From Octopus vulgaris (Eukaryota): a DNA stretch of 64,000 nt. The DNA is taken from positions 105,400,001 to 105,464,000 of the forward strand of contig OX597821.1 of assembly GCA_951406725.2 (NCBI GenBank), in the 5' to 3' direction. How positions within the stretch are numbered: the first letter of the stretch is position 1; every line of letters starts with the position of its first letter. A model generated the notes under the pieces. The model did no database searches. It saw nothing but the letters and a program-made list of their open reading frames with translations, and was not told the DNA's origin. The position numbers were made by a program, and so were the translations under genes. Positions 1 through 63,469 of the stretch are shown one piece after another.

Positions 1-210
1 CTTTGATTACATTGTCGTGAAAACCTAGTCTGGGAATTAGTACTTCTTTTTAATTTACCACACTTTGGTCCCTTGAAAATGCCCCCAGAAGACGCCATTT
101 TCCACTCACTAACCTATAATAATAATCCCACGCATACAAACATATATACATATTATGAATATGTACTTCCGTAGCAAGTGACCTGATCTGAGATCGTGTG
201 CTGGAACGAA

Positions 211-500
211 AACAATTGCAGTGTGGAAGGTGTTTATAAACCATTTAAGAAACACACAAAAGCCGTTAGATGCACATCAACATATAAATTTAATTTGTAA
301 AAATATTTTCGGCGCTTTCAGACCGCGACCTGTTCACTGACAAAACTTCGTTTTGCAGCACGAAGTTTCGTTAGTGAACATGTCGCGGTGTGAAAGCGAC
401 GAAAATATTTTGACAAATTAAATTTAAATGTTGAAGTGAATCTAACGGTTTTTGCGTGTTTCTTAAATACCTTATAAACACCTTCCACGCTGCAATTGTT
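211..500. repeat. ~290-bp imperfect palindrome (inverted PLE terminal-repeat pair) with one hammerhead motif per arm
   Basis: Starts aacaattgcagtgtggaaggtgtttataa and ends ttataaacaccttccacgctgcaattgtt (reverse complements), centre ~355; same family at 32473-32735. Confidence 0.9.
367..417 (+). ncRNA. Type I hammerhead-like motif, G3:C8 core variant (mirror copy 294-344 on -)
   Basis: ttcgtta-GTGAACA-t-gtcgc[ggtgtgaaa]gcgac-GAAA-atat-TT-tgacaaa. Confidence 0.6.
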
Positions 501-529: not shown

Positions 530-1038
530 ATAGTAAAAAGTGAAACTACAGAAGGCTTGTTTTAAAAGGTTAAAAAATATATATTTGAGTCAATATGTCT
601 GAAGAATATTATAAATGTTATTCTTACAATGACATAGTTTAGAAGAAAGACCGGTTTCGCGTTTAGCTTTTCAAATTTCTTACGTCGTTATGTTTATGTT
701 GAGAGAGTTATCGTTATGTTTATGTTGAAAAGAGTTCTAGATAAGGGGAGGTAATAAGTGATTTCTTCCGGTGTAAGGGAGATGATCGCTTAAAATTTTT
801 TGCCTTTCCCTTGGTGTGAATTTCTCTGTATAAGTATGTTGGAATGGTTAAGTCTGGGCTTGTACTTTTCAATGAAGATTGTTTCCTTGTTTAGTCTAAT
901 TTGAGTTGATGATCCGATAGCACATTGGTAAAATGGAAAGATTAAAAATTGTGGTAGTAGTTGCTTTGCGCATTTCTCAATGTGCTCACTAAAAGGTATC
1001 ATTCTGTATTCTGGGGATGCAATCTGTTGTCGATGCAT

Positions 1039-6411: not shown

Positions 6412-6500
6412 TACTAATATAGGATGAAGTTTTTTTACAAAACAAATTCCATCAAAAAATGTGGCAGCATATTAAAATACCTTTAAGGTTAAAATTATAA

Positions 6501-6827
6501 ACAACTTATAAATAAGGGCTAAAGAAATTTATTTCAATGCCAATATGCTGATAACAGATTTTTAAATCGTCAATTTCCACATATTATTTACTCGCTACAG
6601 AAAAAAAGCACGAAGAGGAAAAAATATATTATGAGATTAATTCTGAAATTGATTCAATATAGAAATAACGAACTTTAAAAAAAATTCTATCGGCCGGCTT
6701 TCCCCGATTTCAGCTCTTCGTTGTTTTTTTCTGTAGCGAGTAAATAATATGTTGAAATTAACGATTTAAAAGTCTGTTATCAGCATATCGCCATTGAAAT
6801 GATTTTCTTTAGACCTTACTTATAAGT

Positions 6828-6830
<3 letters not shown>
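6501..6830. repeat. Inverted repeat (~115-bp arms, ~95-bp spacer) between (TA)n tracts
   Basis: acaacttataaataaggg...ctcgctacagaaaaaaagcacgaagag vs ctcttcgttgtttttttctgtagcgag...ccttacttataagttgt. Confidence 0.85.
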
Positions 6831-6878
<48 letters not shown>

Positions 6879-13239: not shown

Positions 13240-13624
13240 AGCAGTTTGCATTTCAAGAGTTGCCGGGAGATGTGTCTACCTTTGTTGGACAGCTGATGGG
13301 TCAAACTTTGATCTTTCTAGACTTCGAAAAAAGACTAAGATCAATAGACCAACAATAAGAGACTTCTTCTTCGCCGACGATGTGACACTTGTTGCTCACA
13401 GTGAATTAACTCTACAAATAATGATGGGCCATTTATTATCACCATGTAAGGTCTTCGGTTTGGTCATCAGTGTAAAGAAGGCTGTCAATCTCACTCAGGA
13501 GGGCGCGGTGAAAGGCCATATCAAGCTTGATGACAAACAGCTTGCGACAATGGACAGGTGGTTCTGCTATCTAGGGTCTACCATTTCCTCTATTACTTCA
13601 CTTGATGATGAGATTAATTTCAGG

Positions 13625-31811: not shown

Positions 31812-32472
31812 TAATATTAATATTAGGGAAGTTGTTGTTACTGAGTCCACAGGTGAGAGAAGTTCAATTTAGGGGTACTCAAATGAATTAATCACTCTAT
31901 TATATACATACATACATATAGGTTTAAGCGACAGAATCCCCCTTAAGCAAGTCAATCATCATTGAATGACGTTATCCACAATAGGTACACATAAGACTAA
32001 ATATTAAAATTATCAAAATTAATACTTACAATTCTTATTCCAAATTATCAAAATGAATACATTCAATTTTTATTTCAAACCATATACGTTACTACGAAAG
32101 TTTCATGACAACATATTCCTCGATATTGCTGAAATAGAATGTCTCTAAATACAATGCCATATTAAAATGATTATATTGTCAATCTCCAGGTCTACTATAT
32201 ATGAAGTTATTTTCCTATTTACATCCTACATAAAGACATAACAAACTTAATTCATATTAACATTCTCCAGATTTATTATTATAAATAATAGAAAATAACT
32301 TTTAAGAAGATTTAAATGTCAATAATAATTATCGACCCCTCCCCCGAAAGTAGTCCTCACTGTTGCATTATAGGATTGCTGATAGTGAACATTACCAAAC
32401 AGATAAGTTAACATTTCTTTTTACTAATATTTCTTTTACCTACTTTTATTCCACAGTTTTGTTTATTATTTA

Positions 32473-32735
32473 CAAACAATTGCAGCGTGGAAGGTGTTTA
32501 TAAGCCATTTAAGAAACACACAAAAGTCGTTTAATTTGTCAAAATATTTTCGTCGCTAAAATCCGCGACCTGTTCACTGACAAAAATCCGTGCTGCATCT
32601 CTTTGTCAGTGAACAGGTCGCGGATTTTAGCGACGAAAATATTTTGACAAATTAAACTTAAATGTTGAAGTGAATCGAACGGCTTTTGTGTGTTTCTTAA
32701 ATGGCTTATAAACACCTTCCACGCTGCAATTGTTT
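32473..32735. repeat. Palindromic element, same family as 211-500
   Basis: aaacaattgcagcgtggaaggtgtttataagcc...ggcttataaacaccttccacgctgcaattgttt. Confidence 0.9.
32602..32651 (+). ncRNA. Type I hammerhead motif, G3:C8 core (exact mirror copy 32535-32584 on -)
   Basis: tttgtca-GTGAACA-g-gtcgc[ggatttta]gcgac-GAAA-atat-TT-tgacaaa: perfect 7-bp helix I, 5-bp helix II, palindromic aatatt helix III. Confidence 0.7.
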
Positions 32736-32885
32736 TCGTTTCAGCACACGATCTCAGATCAAATTACTTGCTATGCGAGTACATCTCCGTAATAAAATAA
32801 AATTATTCCAACAATTTCCAGTTATATAATTTTAGTTTGTCATGTTTTTATTCAGGATGGAAATAGAAAAGTAAGTCCATATAAG

Positions 32886-32990
32886 CTAGACCTGAAGATT
32901 GGCAATATAATCATTTTAATATGGTATTGTAATTAGTGACATTCTATATCAGCAATATCGAGGAATATGTTTTCATTAAACGCGCGTAGT
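32886..32990 (+). ncRNA. Degenerate hammerhead with very long helix II
   Basis: ctagac-CTGAAGA-t-tggcaatat...atgttttca-t-TAAA-cgcgcg-TA-gt; the opposite arm keeps atgttgtcat-GAAA. Confidence 0.45.
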
Positions 32991-33191
32991 AAAGTATATG
33001 ATGTGAAATTAAGAATTGAAGGTAATAATTTTGATGATTTGGAATAAGAATTGTAAGAAAGAAATACGAAGAATATACAGAGGGAATAATAAATCTTGGT
33101 GCTAGCAGTCAATCATATATGCATATATATGTGTATGTGCGTGTATGTGAGTGTATGTATATATATATATATGTATGTATATATATTCTTC

Positions 33192-36424: not shown

Positions 36425-38385
36425 ACATGTATGTATGTATGTATGTATGTATGTATATATGTATGTATAGTGGAGGGAACTGAAAGTTTTCAATATAAAA
36501 TAGCATTTTAACTTTCAGCAATGATGAAAGTTGATATCTTATTTAATTACATTTGAAGTTTCATAAATATATGATTTATCGATTTTTCAGATAGCTGAAC
36601 GTTCTATAGTGGGTGAAAACATCTGATATTGGTGAAAATGCTGAGATAAATGTAAAAGATAAAACTCTCTATGTCATTCAGTTATCGCTACTATCAAAAT
36701 CTAGACGACGCTGTAAAATAGTCTACAGAAGTGTGATTTAACCTTGTTTATTGCCCTGGAAAACTTATATAAATTCATGGGGAGATTATGAAGCTTTCAA
36801 TATATAAATATGTTTAATATATTAGTATGTTTAACAAAGTTGTGTTTTAAAATAGTGTTACCAAGGTGGTTGGCAGTGACGAGGAACTTTCATGTGTATG
36901 AAAGGCTATTAACAAGACTAATAATTATTGAATTATGAATGCGTGTTCCTGCAGAAGTTACTGCAAATCAGTAGCTGGTTGAAACTTTAGGTGTTGCCGA
37001 GTTTAAAGTAACAAAATCTAGCCTCTTTATCATGCTATAACGTTAGTGTGTTTACGGGAAAGAAATGGAACGTGAGAATTGGTGTTGAGATAGCAGAAAA
37101 AACTTAGGAAATTTATGTTGTGGTAGCGTAGAATTTATGGAAGAGAAGATGATTTACACAGATCCCATGATCTCTCTGCCAGAAGAACAAAGTCAGTAGA
37201 GACATTGAAATTAAAGCAAATCGACACACTGGGAAGGAGGGGCAATGATTGAAGAAAATTGGGCGACAATGTAAATGTGCATGAAGAGCATGAATAAAAT
37301 TTGAAACTGCCATTAATCATGTGACGGAAAACGTATCGGGCATGTATGAATTTCAAATTATAGGTTTCTATCCTTCTCCCTTCAACAGTTATTATGCATA
37401 ATTTGGTCGGTATCTAGCACCAAATAACCCTACTAGTAAAGGAGCTTAAGTTGGAGATCCACACACTTCTGTCTTTTAATGGGTCTTAGCATATGTGCAT
37501 CGCAGCTAATTGTAGAAAGAACCAAATATATGGTCTTGAGCAAATCAGAAGAGGCAGCAGTGATCGTACGGAAAGGAATGATGTGAAATTGAGTGACGCA
37601 AGCTAATTGTGAGTACTTTTATTGATGCAGTGATACAATAACTCAGTAGCGTTAAACCAATAGAAATCAGTTCAAATTGACAATCAGTTGTTTAACACAA
37701 GGTCCGTATGGAACAGAAGCAGAAGTGGGTAAACAAGTGAAAACCGACAGATTAATGGATAACGCTAATATATATCTGTAAATGGATTTGAAAAATGTTT
37801 TCATATCTCCAATCCGTAACTAAAGATGGATCGCACTTAATTTATGCCGTGGTCTGTTATAACAAGAAAATATATGAGTTTTGAATTAATGTTATCTTCC
37901 GAGGAAAGATATGCTGGATTGGGAACATGAGCAGCTAATTAAAAGATAAATAATTTATGAGGGATATATGGGATAGTTCGCAGGAAAAGAAGGCAACGTA
38001 TTTTATGTTGAGTAGAATTAAGGAAATTGTTGAAACATACAGAGGAAAAAAACAAAGAAAACGTTCATGAGGTGAATTGGAAAGGAGGGGTTGGTTGAAA
38101 CTACATCGACAAGAATGTGGCACGAAAGAAAATTAGAGAGCAAATATATATGTAAATATATAATCTAACCTTCATCGGTATGTGCAACAAGCAGTCTTTT
38201 TTTTAATCTCGAGAGGGATTGAGCTGCAACTATTTAGAACCGTAACTCGTGTTTGGAAAAAAAAAGAAGAAAGAAAAAGACAGTGCGATATGGATTAGGT
38301 CACACAGAAAGGCATGCTCTCTGGTAGCATCTGTCTTGGTATCTATAGAAAAGAGATAGATACATAGATAGATGGATAAATAAGT

Positions 38386-38503
38386 AAAATACAGTGTGCA
38401 TTTAAACACATTAAGAGGTTTCCATCAAAGGAATCCCTTACGCTAGCGTAAGGGATACCTATGATGGAAACCTAATAATGTGTTTAAATGTACATTGTAT
38501 TTT
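38386..38503. repeat. ~118-bp imperfect palindrome
   Basis: Centre atcccttacgctagcgtaagggat; arms catttaaacacatta / taatgtgtttaaatg. Confidence 0.9.
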
Positions 38504-38601
38504 ATATGAATAATATATAGTCTATTGACTGAGTTTTCTATACCTTAGGCCAATGGTAGTAAACATTTCTAAAATATTTATTACCTTGATATTATTAATT
38601 T

Positions 38602-41520: not shown

Positions 41521-42900
41521 CCTCGGTGAGTTACCGCCAGTTGATATTTTAATTGTGTTTGAATTTTTTTATAGTTCTTGTTTGAATATCATATGAAGAT
41601 TACTATTTTCAAAGAAAACTTTGATCATAATTAATATTGAATTTCAATTAACAACTATAAGTTTTTACACCCTTTTAGACTACAAACGCGTGTGCGAGCT
41701 GCGAGAAAGAATATTAAAACATTTAAATCTATAACTACTATCTTCCTTTTTAATGTTTGGTTTCACAGCTAACTAGTATTCAAATTTCACTAGACTTCAA
41801 GAAAATGTTTACCATATAATGTTCGTGTCTAAAATATTACATTGTATTGATTAATAATAGAAAAGAATAGGGTAACATTATGTTATATTTATAAGAAGGT
41901 ATGAACGGCTGCTGCTAACAATTCTGATCGATAAGTCGTGTGAATGGTTTAAATGTAATACTAAAAAACAAAGAAAAAAGCTTTATAGCTTTAATTTAAT
42001 TTGTCTTTAGCAACACGTATTTGAAAAAGATTCGAGTAAAATAACAGACATTTTTTAAAAGTGAATTTGCCAAAACTGGATGATGTGAGTAAATTTCTGC
42101 AATTTATTTTTTCTGTTCTATTTTAACACAAGTCAAATTGTGTTATTAGACGCGCTGTGTATTATATCAAATTTCACACGTTAAATGTAAATATTGAAAG
42201 AGTCGTTTATATATTTTTAGAAGTTTAACACAGAAGGAAAACAACAACAATAAAGAGAAAAAGACACTAATAATTTTGAATGATGTGCTTAATAATGTTG
42301 TACTCCTATGTTTGAAATTGTCTCACAATTATCAAGTTAAATTTTCTTTTTCAATTCTTGAAGAATTTTAGACGTGACTAATTTCATATGTTCAAACGTT
42401 AGACCTTTTAAACAAGTTATTTTCGGTGTGGTTGGTTATATGTGGAGACATACCTCTATAGTTGAAATGCTGTGTACATAACAAAGGGATTTGGTAACAC
42501 GTGCAAGTATTTTCCTCGTAAGTCCCCGGGGTGATAATCCCTTCTGTTTGGAACTCGGAAATAGAACCTGCGCAAAAGACATGAATTATATACATACATT
42601 CATACCACATTCGAATATAAATATAAATATGTAACTACAAAATGTAACTACACGTGGATTGTTGGCGATGGTTTTCCACTTTTTCTCTTTTTCTTTGGAC
42701 ATTCCTGTGTTTCCTGTTTCCGAAAAAGAGCTCTGCTCGAAACATAAATCAACTACTCTTTTCTTTCTCCGAGCGTCTTCTCAATATTTTGCATGTGCTA
42801 CGTACGCACGTTGTTCTGATTTTTTTGTCTTCTCGCTTTTTTAATTAATTACACACACACACATACACATGCATATATATATATATGTATATATATTTTA

Positions 42901-43020
42901 TTATATAGAAGGAGCTTCTACAGGACTAGAACTGTTTCTTTCAAAAGAAATCATCAGGAAGTCCTGATGATTTCTTTTGAATGAAACAGTTCTAGTCCTG
43001 TAGAAGCTCCTTCTATATAA
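42901..43020. repeat. Near-perfect 120-bp palindrome with a CTGATGA...GAAA hammerhead core on each arm
   Basis: ttatatagaaggagcttctacaggactagaactgtttc...aaatcatcagga-ag-tcctgatgattt...gaaacagttctagtcctgtagaagctccttctatataa; continuation 43070-43162 has an inverted copy at 42520-42610. Confidence 0.9.
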
Positions 43021-43361
43021 TAAATTAATTTACTCTGCCATGTATTGAGTACCTTATTTACTGTGGTTAACCCCGACTCAACCCGGGACCTACATATATG
43101 TATATATATATATATGGTATGAATGTATGTATATAATTCATGTCTTTTGCGCAGCTTCTATTTATATATATATATATATTTAGAGAGACAGAGAGACAGA
43201 GAGACAGAGTGAGAGCGAGAGAGAGATAGATATATACATATATATATATGTATATATATAAAGAGAGAGAGAGAAATAATTGAGATTCAGTTGAATTAGG
43301 TAGAGCTCGAAGTAAGGTTAATAAAATCAAAATAAGCAGAAGGATATCGAGAAGTGATAGA

Positions 43362-51994: not shown

Positions 51995-53090
51995 GCATTT
52001 GTTTGTCTTGAGATGGTAGAACATTAACCAGCTGCATGAATAGAAGCTGCAGGTGCAGTGTGTATGTATGTGTGTGTGTGTGAGAGAGCGTGTGTATGCA
52101 ATTTGTATTCTGAGGTTGCTTGCATGTTTAATGGAAATACAATCACAATGTTTTAATAAAATTTATGTATCTCACATCATACACTATCTTTTAACTTTTG
52201 AATTGATCGTGTATTAAAAAGTGAGCAGGACAGCGAGCCGTGGTATAGATTATTGAACGTTGATGTCCACATTTTTGTTATTTTCGCGAATTAATGTTAT
52301 GTTTAAAAGTTCTCAAATTAGACTGCCTACATTCGCTTGATATATATTTACAATCGTATAATTTGAAAGATATTATTCCTCAATATAGACCGTCGATCAT
52401 GTCCGTTATTTGCACTTCGTTCCACGTCTGGGAATTTAATCGACCGTGATAACGCAGTTGTAAAATAATGCTTTCAGGGCAGATTGTTGAAGGGGAAATA
52501 TATAGCATGCGGAAATATAATGGCAGTAAACGATATATTGGTAGTAACCAGAACATTTGTTTGTCTTGATATGGTAGAATATTAACCAGCTAAAAAAACA
52601 GAAGGTCCAGGTGCAATTGTGGTTAGAAGGGCAGAATGATAGTAGAAAAAACAAAAAAGGTGTTTCTGTGAGTGCAGCCCGGGGAATTGATAATAATCAA
52701 ATTCTTCCTGTATACAATTTTTTCTTGTTTCGTTTTTGGATTTGGTTTGCAAAATTCTTTATATGAGTTCGTGTGTATTGAAGCATATTCTGTTATGTCT
52801 GGGAATAGTCATTTTCTTTTTCTGCCTTATAATATAAAACATTCACCTGTAAAATTTCCACTCATTTCTTATTTTTGTTTTCCTAAAATTTCCGTTAGGT
52901 CTTGCAACCTTTTCAGTAGTCTTGAATCTGTCCGTTATTTGCACTTCGTTCCTGTCTGGGAATTTAATCGACCGTGAGTGGCTGAACGCAGTGTAAATAA
53001 CGGGCAGAGACAAGACTATTGAAAAGGTTGCAAGATGCAACGAAAATTTTAGGAAAATAAAAATAAGAAAGAGGTGGAAATTTTTTTCTT
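51995..53090. repeat. Mosaic of short direct and inverted duplications
   Basis: gtccgttatttgcacttcgttcc-gtctgggaatttaatcgaccgtga at ~52401 and ~52930 (inverted piece at ~51535); gtttgtcttga-atggtagaa-attaaccagct at ~52001 and ~52558; inverted arms ~52850-52925 / ~53010-53085. Confidence 0.75.
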
Positions 53091-57770: not shown

Positions 57771-57840
57771 CAACCATGATTGTCACACGCTGATGAAAGG
57801 TAAACATCTTGAAACTCGGGTCCGTGTGTATCATGAGTTG
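57771..57840 (+). ncRNA. Canonical type I hammerhead ribozyme (predicted cleavage after C57822)
   Basis: caac-catgat-tgt-cacacg-CTGATGA-aaggt[aaac]atctt-GAAA-ctcggg-TC-cgtgtg-t-atcatg-a-gttg: all core nucleotides intact, extended bulged helix I. Confidence 0.85.
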
Positions 57841-58051: not shown

Positions 58052-58384
58052 ATAATTTACAAGATAAGGGCAAAAGAAAAATTCTATTGCCAAATATGCC
58101 GAAAAAAAGAGGATAATTGTCAATAAAGCATTATAATTTATGCGTCTCAAAACAAACCGATAGAAATCTCTAAAAAATTCGTTAATACCGTATTGGTCCA
58201 ATTTCGGGGAAAATTTCTTACGAATTAGCCCCGAAATAGGACCAATACGGTAATAACGAATTTTTTAGAGATTTCTATCGGTTTGTTTCGAGACGCATAA
58301 ATTATAATGTTTATTTACAATTATTGTTTTTTTGTCGGGATATTTGGCAATAGAATTTTTATTTTGCCCTTATCTTTAAATTAT
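58052..58384. repeat. ~330-bp imperfect palindrome between (TA)n tracts
   Basis: aagataagggcaaaa...ccgtattggtccaatttcgggg / ccccgaaataggaccaatacgg...ttttgcccttatctt. Confidence 0.9.
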
Positions 58385-59535: not shown

Positions 59536-61859
59536 TTAATTGTTTGTCGTAGACCCGTTAAGAAGTGGCCTGTATTTTGCAATAAAGAGAGTTTCTTTAC
59601 TTATTCGTTGTCTCGAGGTTGTATCGTCCCTAAATTGGTAGAGGGGAAAATCCTGAAGCTTGGTGTTTTTTGTTGGCGCAAGTATCTATGTGTTGGCTAA
59701 AAGCTATTTTTCTGTTTTGGGGAATTTTTATCTGGGATCTGTGCAGGGCCATTCGTTTACGCAAACTATTTTTTGTTTGGCCTATGTACTGCTCTTGACA
59801 CCCGGAGCAGGTTAGTGAGTATATTAGGTTCTCCGAAGCACATGTGAAGTTGCTTTTCACTGTAAACCGTTGTCCCTGTTTGAAGGAGAACTCTGATCCC
59901 TCAATTAGATAGTCGCATATCCCGCAATTGGGTCTTCCACATTTTTTTTACTGTCGGCTTCTGTGTTGAAGAGTGAATTCGGGCTTGTGTTAGGAGACTT
60001 TTCATGGATTTAGGCTGTCTCTTGCTTTTTATGATCGTGTGTGTTTGGAGGATTGTGTTCATTCTGTGGTCTTTTTTTAGGAGGGGTATGTTGTGGAGGA
60101 TGGTGCCGAAGGCTTCGTTATTGAGAGGGTTGTGTGTGGAGATGTATGGTAAGGCTTTTGGTTGTAAGTTTTTCTTTGATTTGGGATGTCTCAGTTCCTT
60201 GATGTTAAGTTGAATTGCACTTGTCAATTGATGTGTTGAATTGATGTGTTGAATGCACTTGTCAATAAGTGAAGGTGGATAGTTCCTGGTGATAAGGGTA
60301 TCTTTTAGTTCTTGTAGTCGTGTCTCTCTGGTGTTTGTGTTCGAGACTATAGTGCATATCATTTTTGCTAGGCTGAAGGGGATATTCATCCTGGTGTGTC
60401 TGGGGTGGCATGAATTGAATGGAAGATATTGCTTTGAGTCTGTAGGCTTATAATATATGTCTGTTTCTATTATATTATTAGCTTTCTTAATGAGGATATC
60501 GAGGAAGGGGAGTTGTTGCTTGCTATATTCCATCGTGAATTGGATGTTTACGTCCAGTCCGTTTAAAATTTCCTGGAATTCTATGAGTTTTTCTATATTT
60601 TTATGCCAAAGGATGAAACAGTCATCTAGATATCTCTTCCAGTTGTTTTCTATGTAGATGGAGAAAGGGCTGCCATATCTTTCTAGAACCTTACGATACA
60701 GACTGATCTCTAGATATCCTATGACTAGGTTGGCAAAGGAGGGGGCCATTCGTGTACCCATCGCAGTCCCCGATTTTTGTCGGTAGAAGTTGTCATTGAA
60801 GGCGAAGAAGTTATTTTCCAGGATGAATTTAACCCCTTCTATCACGAATCCTTTTTTGATGCGATGTGGTAGTTCGTTGGCGTGATTTTCTAGCCAGAAT
60901 TGGATTGCCTCTAGTCCTAGGTTGTGGGGGATATTGGAGTAGAGGTTGACTACATCGAAGGATACCAGTATGGTGTTTTTGTTTATAGTATTCGGTAGGT
61001 GATTGAGCATATCTAAGTCGTCCCTTATATAGCTTTTGACATGTTTTAGGAGTGGTTTTAACAGGGTGTCTAAAAAGTTACTGAGGCGGTGGGTTTCGCA
61101 TGCGGGACCTGCTATTATGGGTCTCAATTTGAGGTCATTAGGATTAGGGACTTTAATTATTTTGTCTGTAGCTATCTTGCATGCGTTGCTTATTTTCTCA
61201 CTTTTGTGGATCTTAGGTATACCGTAGAATTGGCTGGTTTTGCTTGTGAAATTGGTCATATAATCATATTCTTTGTCGGTGAGCCCTGCTTTGTATGGGT
61301 TTAATATGGATTTTAGTTCCCTCATTATTTTTTGTTGACTGTAGTTTTGTGCCTTTTCATAGTATGTTGTGTCTTCCAGCATAGAAAGTACCAAAGTTAT
61401 GTAAAATGTCGTATCCATTAAGACAACAACACTCCCTTTATCGGCCTCTTTGATTGTTATTGTTTTATCTAGTTTTAATTTGTTCAACTCAGCCCATTCT
61501 TTTTTGCTGAAGTTTGGTTTGTGTTTTTGTTTGTGCATATGTTGATATGGGTAATTTGATATGTGGTCACAGAAATCATCAAGTGTTTTGTTCTTACCTT
61601 TAGAGGGGGTGTAGTTACTCCTATTTCTGGCTAACGATTCGTCCTCGTTGTATTTATCGTATAGCTCCTCAGTAAGTCTTAATTGTCTGCAGAATTCTGC
61701 GATGTCTTCTTTCATTTCATTGTAGTTGGGGTGTTGTGGGGTGAGTGTAAACTTGAGTCCTTTGGAAAGTATGTTTATTTGGTTTGCTGTTAGTTCCTTG
61801 TGAGTTAGATTAATAATTTTTATTACTTTTGGTTCCTCCTGCTTGTTTGGTGCTATCTT
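59536..61859 (-). CDS. PLE polyprotein: RT, CX4CX2C linker, GIY-YIG endonuclease with CCHH motif; three single-base frameshifts near the 3' end
   Basis: LSKGLKF (in frame upstream of the listed ATG), IKEADKG, FYGIPKIHK, LRPII, SFDVVNLYSNIP, GTAMG, RYLDD, LPFLD; after a shift CGRPNCGIC...NLIYSLTCSGCQEQYIGQT...RMALH...SQH. Confidence 0.93.
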
Positions 61860-62929
61860 ATATATATATGAAAAAAGGTTTGAATAAAAGCAATTTTACA
61901 GATGTATCTTTATAATTGCATTTTCTAACCTTCTTTCAAATATATTTCTGCTCGTGAGATACCTTACAACTTCACTTTGTCATATATATATATAAATAAA
62001 TAAATTCCCGTCGAAATGTGATTGCGATAATTAGAAACTGTCGACGGTCTTACGATGTCTACTTGTAAGCATGTAGGCGTCGAAAACAGTTATAGACGCC
62101 CATATACTTATGTTATCTGCATGTCTTAATTATATATGGAAAAAACCGAATGTGGGAGAAACATGAGAGCAGTAATTCTCTGCTTCAACCGTGCTCAGGA
62201 ATATATCTTGATTTGTTTTTTATATAGCAAATCCTTATTAATATATTCCATTATTAGACTAAACAGGGCAAAGAAAATAGTCTTATCATGACTTAGGAGA
62301 TAGTGTGACGAAATGTAATCTCTGCAAGCGAGTAAATATGTAATGAAATTAAGGATTTTAACAAAAGAATACAAGATTGGGACCTCGCGATGTAGCAGAG
62401 ATACGTGTTATATATATATATATTGGTAAAGTAATATTAAAATTGTTGAGAAGTAGAAAGTAATTAATAAAATTGCATGAGTGTACTGTGGTATTCGATT
62501 GAATGACAGATTTTACGTTAGAAAAGTGTGTAGAAATATTACAAATATGTCTATAAATGTGTGTATTCATGAAAGTAGTAGGGTTGCTTAAAGAAGAAAC
62601 GACTACGCACAGACGCATACGCGCACAAACACACACACATGCGCATACACGTATGCAAATACATACAAGAGAAGCAAAAACTGAATTTCATTACAACTGA
62701 AATTGCTTAAAAGGACATTAACTACACTAACTGTCGCAGATATCTTCATTCACAGATGTTCATATATATGGTTATTTATACGCATAATATACATATATAC
62801 ATATATTATACATAAATACATACACACAAGCATATATTCATATCCTTAAATCCTTAAATCCTTAAAAATGTTTCAACCCGAAGTCTGCGGCCATGCTGGG
62901 GCACCACCGTTAAATGAGCTACGCTAGTA

Positions 62930-63440
62930 TGTGAAACCACCTCTGATACGTGGCACTTGATCAGCAAAGGAGTTCGATGCCGCTGCCGGCATCTGTGTTT
63001 CTTGTCAAGAGGTAGGTTCATCTGGAACCCCTGACAAGAAGAGATCGAGTTTAGTTTTAAAGAAACCCACATCCGCAACACGCAGGTCTCTCAGGCATTT
63101 AGAAAGGATATTGAAGAGCTGTGGTTCTCTGAAATCCAAGCTGTTGCAGTATCTGTCCTGTATTTTGATGGTGATTTTGGAATCTTTGGCAGCATGCAGT
63201 GGCGCCCCGTTCTGCTGTTGGGGTAACTTTGAATGCCAAAGTTTGGGGCAAGACCATCCAGGATTTTCCAGATGTATATCACTGCATATCTCTCCCGTCT
63301 TCGCTCTAGGGAGAAGAGTTTTAATACTTTCAGTCTTTCCCAGTAGCTGGTACGTTGCATTGAGACGATCTTTTTAGTGTAGCTTCGTTGAATTGCGTCG
63401 AGTTCTGCTGTTAACTTTATATTGTGTGGTGACCATAGTT
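62930..63440 (-). mobile_element. CR1/L2-group LINE 3' fragment
   Basis: QLWSPHNIKLTAELDAIQRSYTKKI...SYWERLKVLKLFSLERRRERYAVIYIWKILDGL. Confidence 0.85.
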
Positions 63441-63469
63441 GATATATATATATATATATATATGTATAT

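Follow-up and report, generated by a model that had tools for sequence, protein, structure and literature searches.

Two palindromes in the window (the whole 64-kb stretch of DNA analysed here) are copies of a real, abundant and mobile repeat carrying a hammerhead ribozyme motif of the type known from Penelope-like elements (PLEs), in which the pair between core positions 3 and 8 is G3:C8 and not the usual C3:G8. We favour, as probable, a reading in which this high-copy repeat of ~150-210 nt is the terminal pLTR-plus-tail piece of a PLE retroelement, whose swapped-core motif is predicted to self-cleave weakly after U17. That the repeat works like a PLE pLTR remnant is very likely; PLE membership itself is unproven, since no ORF is linked to the repeat.

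The G3:C8 hammerhead motif

The window is AT-rich, microsatellite-laden DNA of animal type. Locus 1 is a palindrome at 211-500 with 88% self-identity and locus 2 a related palindrome at 32474-32735, and no further copies of the two occur elsewhere within the 64 kb. The features of both loci are as follows.

32474-32792, unstranded: whole insertion at locus 2, a short inverted arm plus a long arm with tail, bounded by the empty site
32474-32598, minus strand: short arm of locus 2, with head 32598-32585, hammerhead, a 23-bp deletion and the short 3' end
32602-32735, plus strand: body of the long arm of locus 2 (pLTR-like), with 5' head truncated at the junction and fixed 3' end at 32734/32735
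32736-32792, plus strand: tail-like 3' extension of ~58 nt, optional, holding two short hairpins and shared with 151-210
32602-32651, plus strand: G3:C8 minimal type I hammerhead motif, with helix I 32602-08/32645-51, core 32609-15, extra G 32616, helix II 32617-21/32630-34, GAA 32635-37, palindromic stub 32638-43, U17 32644 and predicted cut 32644/32645
32535-32584, minus strand: identical G3:C8 motif on the inverted arm, with G3 at 32577 and U17 at 32542
151-351, minus strand: long arm of locus 1, comprising the tail (151-210) and the G3:C8 motif (344-294), whose helices I and II have one mismatch apiece
354-500, plus strand: short arm of locus 1, with full head and G3:C8 motif 367-417, its end abutting (TA)n
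32025-33057, unstranded: older foldback repeat of low copy whose 234-bp inverted arms are 85% alike; it received the locus 2 insertion and lies outside the element

A descriptor scan of the 64-kb window found GTGAACA in all four arms of the two loci, with G3 at +374, -337, +32609 and -32577, and position 17 is U in each (+410, -301, +32644, -32542). The preliminary description, which had placed GUGAACA on both arms of both palindromes, was thus correct, as it was for the pairing of helix II (GTCGC/GCGAC, with a single mismatch in arm -337), for the differences in loop II (ggatttta vs ggtgtgaaa/ggtctgaaa) and for the self-complementary helix III stub AATATT. On the plus strand arm of locus 2, G3 is 32609, C8 is 32614 and U17 is 32644, so the 5'-OH end that it predicted at 32645 is also rightly positioned. 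All four arms hold a type I core (GUGAACA, GAAA, UU) with a Watson-Crick 3:8 pair, which is G-C as against C-G in the consensus, and the helices I and II that enclose the core are paired in 45 of 48 cells across the four arms. The features of the minimal PLE hammerhead, namely an extra base after A9, G10.1-C11.1 and a palindromic stub, are likewise present in the G3:C8 arms, the extra base being G in three arms and U in the fourth. The extra nucleotide and U17 had been described as non-canonical; both are in fact normal for PLE hammerheads, as PMC4209133 counts a base between 9 and 10.1 among the conserved features, and U17 stands in many rows of its supplementary alignment.

The descriptor allowed any Watson-Crick 3:8 pair and an optional base after A9, and required G10.1-C11.1, a palindromic stub and UH. 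It matched six motifs in the 64-kb window, the four G3:C8 arms and two with U3:A8, and 30 dinucleotide block shuffles of the window yielded no match, whatever the core type; a slightly stricter form matched five in the window and none in 150 mononucleotide block shuffles (19.2 Mb). With no matches in 180 shuffled windows, the four-arm hammerhead motif is not a product of chance. The heptamer GTGAACA occurs 12 times in the window, four of them in the arms, and a lone plus strand copy in the left flank (32385-32391) is without helices. Rfam returned three matches to 32598-32700 up to E = 10, none of them to a hammerhead model, and over the whole window no hammerhead was among the matches listed (150 of 288), including at the window's canonical-core motifs; what it did return was hairpin and microsatellite noise below gathering scores. 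The motif pattern gave 10 matches in metagenomes, all in GC-rich contigs and none with the stub, helix I or wider homology, and had no match in viral contigs (two scans) or in prokaryote genomes.

Anatomy of the two loci

The palindromes are asymmetric, with one arm ~58 nt longer than the other at each locus (32736-32792; 151-210). What looks like a spacer between the arms is the element's own 5' head, which is complete on the short arm and shortened by a few bases on the long arm at each locus, and the nucleotide at which the short arm stops is identical at both loci. Between the two arms of locus 2, 2 of 111 aligned sites differ, not counting the 23-bp deletion; at locus 1 the count is 15 of 135 sites, and the mismatches of its arms in helices I and II are as neutral decay predicts. 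Loop II is of a single type within each locus, which suggests that both arms arose from one template in one event. Because the arms of a locus are near-identical or share one loop type, the four arms represent at most two independent insertions, and hence two data points.

An empty site was recovered from public sequencing data, where loose ends before 32793 in nine contigs of run X11 match window positions 32444-32473 at 26 of 30 letters (compared by eye). The segment 32474-32792 therefore inserted as one unit into the older foldback repeat 32025-33057, which occurs without the insertion in other runs. No target-site duplication (TSD) is visible at the empty site of locus 2, and none is convincing in the window. 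Stops in all frames, together with the empty site, ruled out the flanking 234-bp inverted repeat as the start of an ORF of the element. Of the palindromic mobile unit originally proposed, the mobile family with a fixed G3:C8 motif stands; the palindromes are asymmetric, however, and their arms record only two independent insertions.

A high-copy family in public sequencing runs

Part of the stretch is contained in 20 of the 24 public runs listed, under four organism codes. Runs were aligned to 32580-33110 at 80% likeness, and the results below come from X9, X11 and X14, with values in that order. The family is of high copy, with 5,202, 8,394 and 1,424 matching contigs. When summed, depth over the body stands to depth just past 32795 as 1,646, 1,169 and 6,310 to 1, a ratio that does not equal copy number and does show a very abundant repeat. 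A shared 5' head, the one carried by the short arm of locus 2 (32598-32585), was obtained as the consensus of loose ends before 32602 (55, 69 and 16 contigs). There is a fixed 3' end at 32734/5 (37, 43 and 47 contigs) and a second at 32792-4 (42, 5 and 2 contigs), each followed by TA-rich, unrelated sequence with low agreement, so that two fixed ends ~58 nt apart are seen in all three runs. Tail depth relative to body depth is 0.45, 0.46 and 0.44, values that either a predominance of short-plus-long pairs or a mixture could produce. Indels at the junction between head-to-head arms are variable, and a head-to-tail joint (32733 to 32629) was found in one contig each of X9 and X11.

A second loop-II subfamily, clipped at 32629, has the consensus GTGAACA in X9 and X11 (59 and 58 contigs); in X14 its core is intact from the GAACA side only (11 contigs). 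Both subfamilies keep G3:C8. The sole substitution listed within 32602-32651 is A32647G at 7-9%, which turns a U-A pair of helix I into U-G, and small insertions are located in loop II. At positions 3 and 8, changes of G>C or C>G all stay below 4%; three further variant rows, known by tally only, are one each of T>C, A>G and C>T. There is hence no reversion to C3:G8 at or above 4%, and a C>T at C8 may be among the three rows. Contigs less than 80% alike were excluded, and the sample is therefore biased towards conservation.

Constraint on the motif is not evident from these data. Compensatory changes among the four G3:C8 arms number 0 of 12 helix pairs, variant density is not significantly lower inside the motif (1 of 50 sites) than outside it (11 of 143; p = 0.19), and CpG loss as a selection signal on the motif was not significant. 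A cross-family alignment of the G3:C8 arms, the two arms at 52.9 kb and the PLE motif showed change on both sides at 7 of 13 pairs, including 3:8, in rows that are related and of unshown homology, the PLE row being shifted by one base in helix II; the covariation score of the alignment was reached by none of 500 shuffles. Such a comparison would support a shared fold, not shared descent.

Predicted folding and activity

In single arms of locus 2, helices I and II are predicted with pair probabilities of 0.93-1.0; for the arms of locus 1 the minimum-energy fold differs. The 50-mer has a predicted z of -3.2 and its antisense -4.1, and because the antisense value is the more negative of the two, z alone is no evidence. 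Forming helix III in a monomer has a predicted cost of 5.4 kcal/mol, on which account a dimer through AAUAUU appears to be the only plausible active form, as in other PLE hammerheads. The active two-strand dimer is predicted at -27.2 kcal/mol, against -26.6 for two open monomers; two G3-paired monomers (-29.4) and the best, non-catalytic, dimer (-31.3) are both more stable. In the G3-paired form G3 makes a wobble pair with U17 (p = 0.67), lengthening helix I. By these models activity, if there is any, should be weak or protein-assisted, in the manner of the lizard PLE ribozyme (PMC11167929).

The back-to-back layout had been linked to cleavage as a dimer, a link that does not survive. The two copies are antisense to each other, and RNA read through the palindrome is predicted to form a hairpin of -185 kcal/mol in which helix II has a probability of 0.0; the palindrome cannot supply the dimer, and a cis-dimer is ruled out. 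As for U17, G17 is reported to make a G3-C8 hammerhead variant more active than C17 does (PMC3884650, without data being shown in that paper), and avoidance of C17 would fit a G3 core. By this analogy U17 may help, not hurt.

Probable assignment to PLEs and alternative readings

The layout of both loci recalls the pLTRs of EN+ PLEs, in which an often 5'-truncated inverted copy, palindromes at the junction and an optional tail on one arm have been described (PMC3846280; PMC8557442). Common to the two are the head-to-head inverted terminal copy and the optional extension of one arm (Arkhipova 2013, PMC3846280; Craig 2021, PMC8557442), which here occur at both loci as an inverted terminal copy with an optional 3' tail. 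They also share a slightly different 5' truncation, an optional TSD and targets of (TA)n type (PMC3846280; PMC8557442), and the family accordingly has TA-rich loose ends and an empty site without a TSD, as expected for AT-rich targets with a variable or absent TSD. In published work the PLE tail is as long as the gap separating two RT start sites, and the targets are AT-rich (PMC11167929). Against the PLE reading, no ORF lies between or beside the arms, the extension is ~58 nt as compared with 30-40 nt in EN+ PLEs (PMC3846280; PMC8557442), and the single tailed arm also resembles a HINE.

The motif itself agrees with the PLE-hammerhead consensus of PMC4209133 save for the 3:8 swap and the G as extra base. 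It shares with PLE type I hammerheads (Cervera and de la Pena 2014, PMC4209133) the type I topology, the extra base between 9 and 10.1, G10.1-C11.1, the palindromic helix III stub, the frequent U17 and a mostly dispersed occurrence. It departs from that consensus in the identity of the extra base (G, where the consensus has H), and in a helix I of 7 bp, and no full PLE was found for this family. The opposite-strand pairs of PMC4209133 are 100-700 bp apart, whereas the present pair is ~30 bp apart; the 3:8 covariant family reported there is U3-A8, with ~1,300 hits in Schistosoma, whereas here 3:8 is G-C.

No ORF adjoins either locus, and no RT + GIY-YIG ORF linked to a G3:C8 terminus lies within the 64-kb window. 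An autonomous partner was sought in the window's own PLE and in the Naiad consensus set, neither of which gave a match. The PLE at 59630-61895 was rejected for its different terminus, its U3:A8 core and the lack of shared sequence. Octopus Naiads were rejected as well, with no motif match and a Naiad_Obim 3' end that is unlike by eye; five motifs of 11-12 nt had no match to a Naiad terminus in the Craig 2021 supplement, where line breaks may hide matches. Simple patterns for the Pol III A and B boxes of a tRNA-derived SINE gave no match.

If the PLE assignment holds, a PLE RT/GIY-YIG protein would nick AT- or TA-rich DNA, and reverse transcription would start at either of two sites ~58 nt apart, leaving one arm tailed and one tailless; within that same event the second, inverted arm would be made by fold-back or a template switch at the 5' end. 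The C3G/G8C double change would keep the Watson-Crick pair that the core needs, so that a master element may have been selected for cleavage. Cutting would take place only in a dimer of same-sense copies, supplied by tandem master copies or by two RNAs, or with the element's protein. The genomic palindromes would then be likely by-products, in which a long read-through hairpin would mask both ribozymes.

The first alternative accepts the PLE origin and holds that the G3:C8 motif is a dead relic that hitch-hiked on the success of a master copy and has lost the ability to cut. We regard this as unlikely, though several observations speak for it. Mutants of a lizard PLE hammerhead left insertion in vitro unaffected, with no RNA ends seen at the site (PMC11167929), and Naiads thrive without canonical hammerheads (PMC8557442); to these can be added the predicted G3.U17 trap, the marginal dimer energy and the non-significant constraint signal. 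Selection for activity would, however, more easily explain a precise, pair-preserving double change that leaves the other core bases intact, and the persistence of G3:C8 in two loop-II subfamilies, two differently coded organisms and a third run.

A non-autonomous rolling-circle DNA element of HINE/DINE-1 type, in which internal hairpins mimic a hammerhead or a hammerhead was captured, is improbable. Like the HINE/DINE-1 Helentron derivatives (PMC4067079), the repeat has an end-complementary 12-mer, a 3' stem-loop and no TSD: the head of the tailed arm matches 32717-32728 imperfectly over 12 bp (10 of 12), with the ends paired in predicted folds, and the stem-loop ~10 nt from the 3' end, the AT-rich target and the missing TSD come near the description in PMC4067079. 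The second fixed end without a stem-loop, the imperfect match, the inverted doubling and the lack of a TT site are unlike that group (PMC4067079), and more than half of the depth stops at 32735, ahead of the 3' stem-loop. The 3' "subTIR" is not only imperfect, it also lies ~65 nt from the end as compared with 38-60 published, and the empty site is C/T, not T/T; the variable junction indels of the head-to-head arms and the absence of the motif from 180 shuffles also tell against an element of this type.

Spread as a non-LTR retrozyme through circular RNA, or cooperation of the back-to-back pair as a dimer, is very improbable, for although non-LTR retrozymes are likewise short non-coding PLE-related repeats with a type I hammerhead (PMC7229834; bioRxiv 10.64898/2026.07.22.740005), derive from PLE pLTRs and are alike in unit size, and although a rare head-to-tail joint (32733 to 32629) is present in one contig each of X9 and X11, the retrozymes are tandem same-sense repeats where the G3:C8 copies are inverted pairs or dispersed (PMC7229834; bioRxiv 10.64898/2026.07.22.740005), neither locus in the window has tandem same-sense copies, and no single transcript can hold both copies in sense when they lie on opposite strands, the read-through RNA (-185 kcal/mol) having a helix II probability of 0.0.

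Natural occurrence of the G3:C8 pair

The literature already describes inverted pLTRs, palindromes at the junction and hammerhead pairs on opposite strands, and the palindromic layout adds nothing new, yet it is a likely source of double-stranded RNA. Given an ordinary layout and supposedly odd bases that are usual for the class, the only feature that looks possibly new is the natural, fixed G3:C8 pair. The same inverted pair has been engineered, with C3G/G8C partly restoring cleavage of a protein-requiring lizard PLE hammerhead (PMC11167929), and such hammerheads have their activity partly rescued (Frangieh 2024, PMC11167929; review PMC8495972). By comparison, the pair is here natural and fixed in a high-copy family, with cleavage predicted only. 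Natural U3-A8 hammerheads (Perreault 2011, PMC3088659) have natural 3:8 covariation in common with it, U3-A8 being the only such pair named in the portion of that text available; G3-C8 as a term has no occurrence in that portion (figures apart). A natural G3:C8 family was likewise met in no report within the literature text covered, a scope that leaves aside figures and Lunse, Weinberg and Breaker 2017.

It is tempting to go further and propose the first natural, catalytically active lineage fixed for G3:C8, with U17 co-adapted against a G3-C17 trap, carried at very high copy by a pLTR-only Penelope parasite, inserting mostly as short-plus-long hairpin pairs and missed entirely by CUGANGA/UUGANAA descriptors and by Rfam. 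We offer this fuller claim tentatively, as one that is rather doubtful as a whole. If the motif cuts, nature would use a third 3:8 pair, otherwise found only as a laboratory rescue mutant in the literature covered; censuses that fix C3:G8 or U3:A8 would then undercount PLE ribozymes, and elements classed as "hammerhead-free" would merit a rescan.

Other hammerhead-like and repeat features of the window

C3:G8, U3:A8 and G3:C8 motifs occur in related contexts within this one 64-kb window, and form a test set for the role of the PLE hammerhead. The PLE ORF at 59630-61895 (minus strand) is near-complete and Neptune/Nematis-like, with RVT_1 at E 2.8e-08, GIY-YIG at E 1.5e-04 and one frameshift ahead of the CX4CX2C linker. 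A U3:A8 motif lies in the 3' end of this PLE (58790-58745, minus strand) and is followed by (TA)n. A decayed PLE 3' end at 600-1000 (minus strand), 61% alike to 59557-59700, adjoins locus 1 across a microsatellite and has a U3:A8-like motif with a 2-bp helix II near 673.

Another head-to-head palindrome, at 52851-53084, has a decayed left arm; its right arm bears a U3:A8 motif with an extra G, a 5-bp helix II, a palindromic AATT stub and U17, a build like that of the G3:C8 motif. In the palindrome 42894-43027 (96%), which ends at TA repeats, CUGAUGA cores stand back to back, 6 nt apart; it failed the descriptor because its helix II begins with U-A. A canonical-core type I hammerhead candidate with CUGAUGA and a GUC site is found at 57783-57830 (plus strand). 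Three foldback palindromes, at 58055-58381, 6496-6835 and 38385-38504, lack a matching hammerhead core; those at 58055-58381 and 6496-6835 are distantly alike. Fragments at 13300-13620 (plus strand) and 62960-63450 (minus strand) resemble what we take to be pieces of LINE reverse transcriptase.
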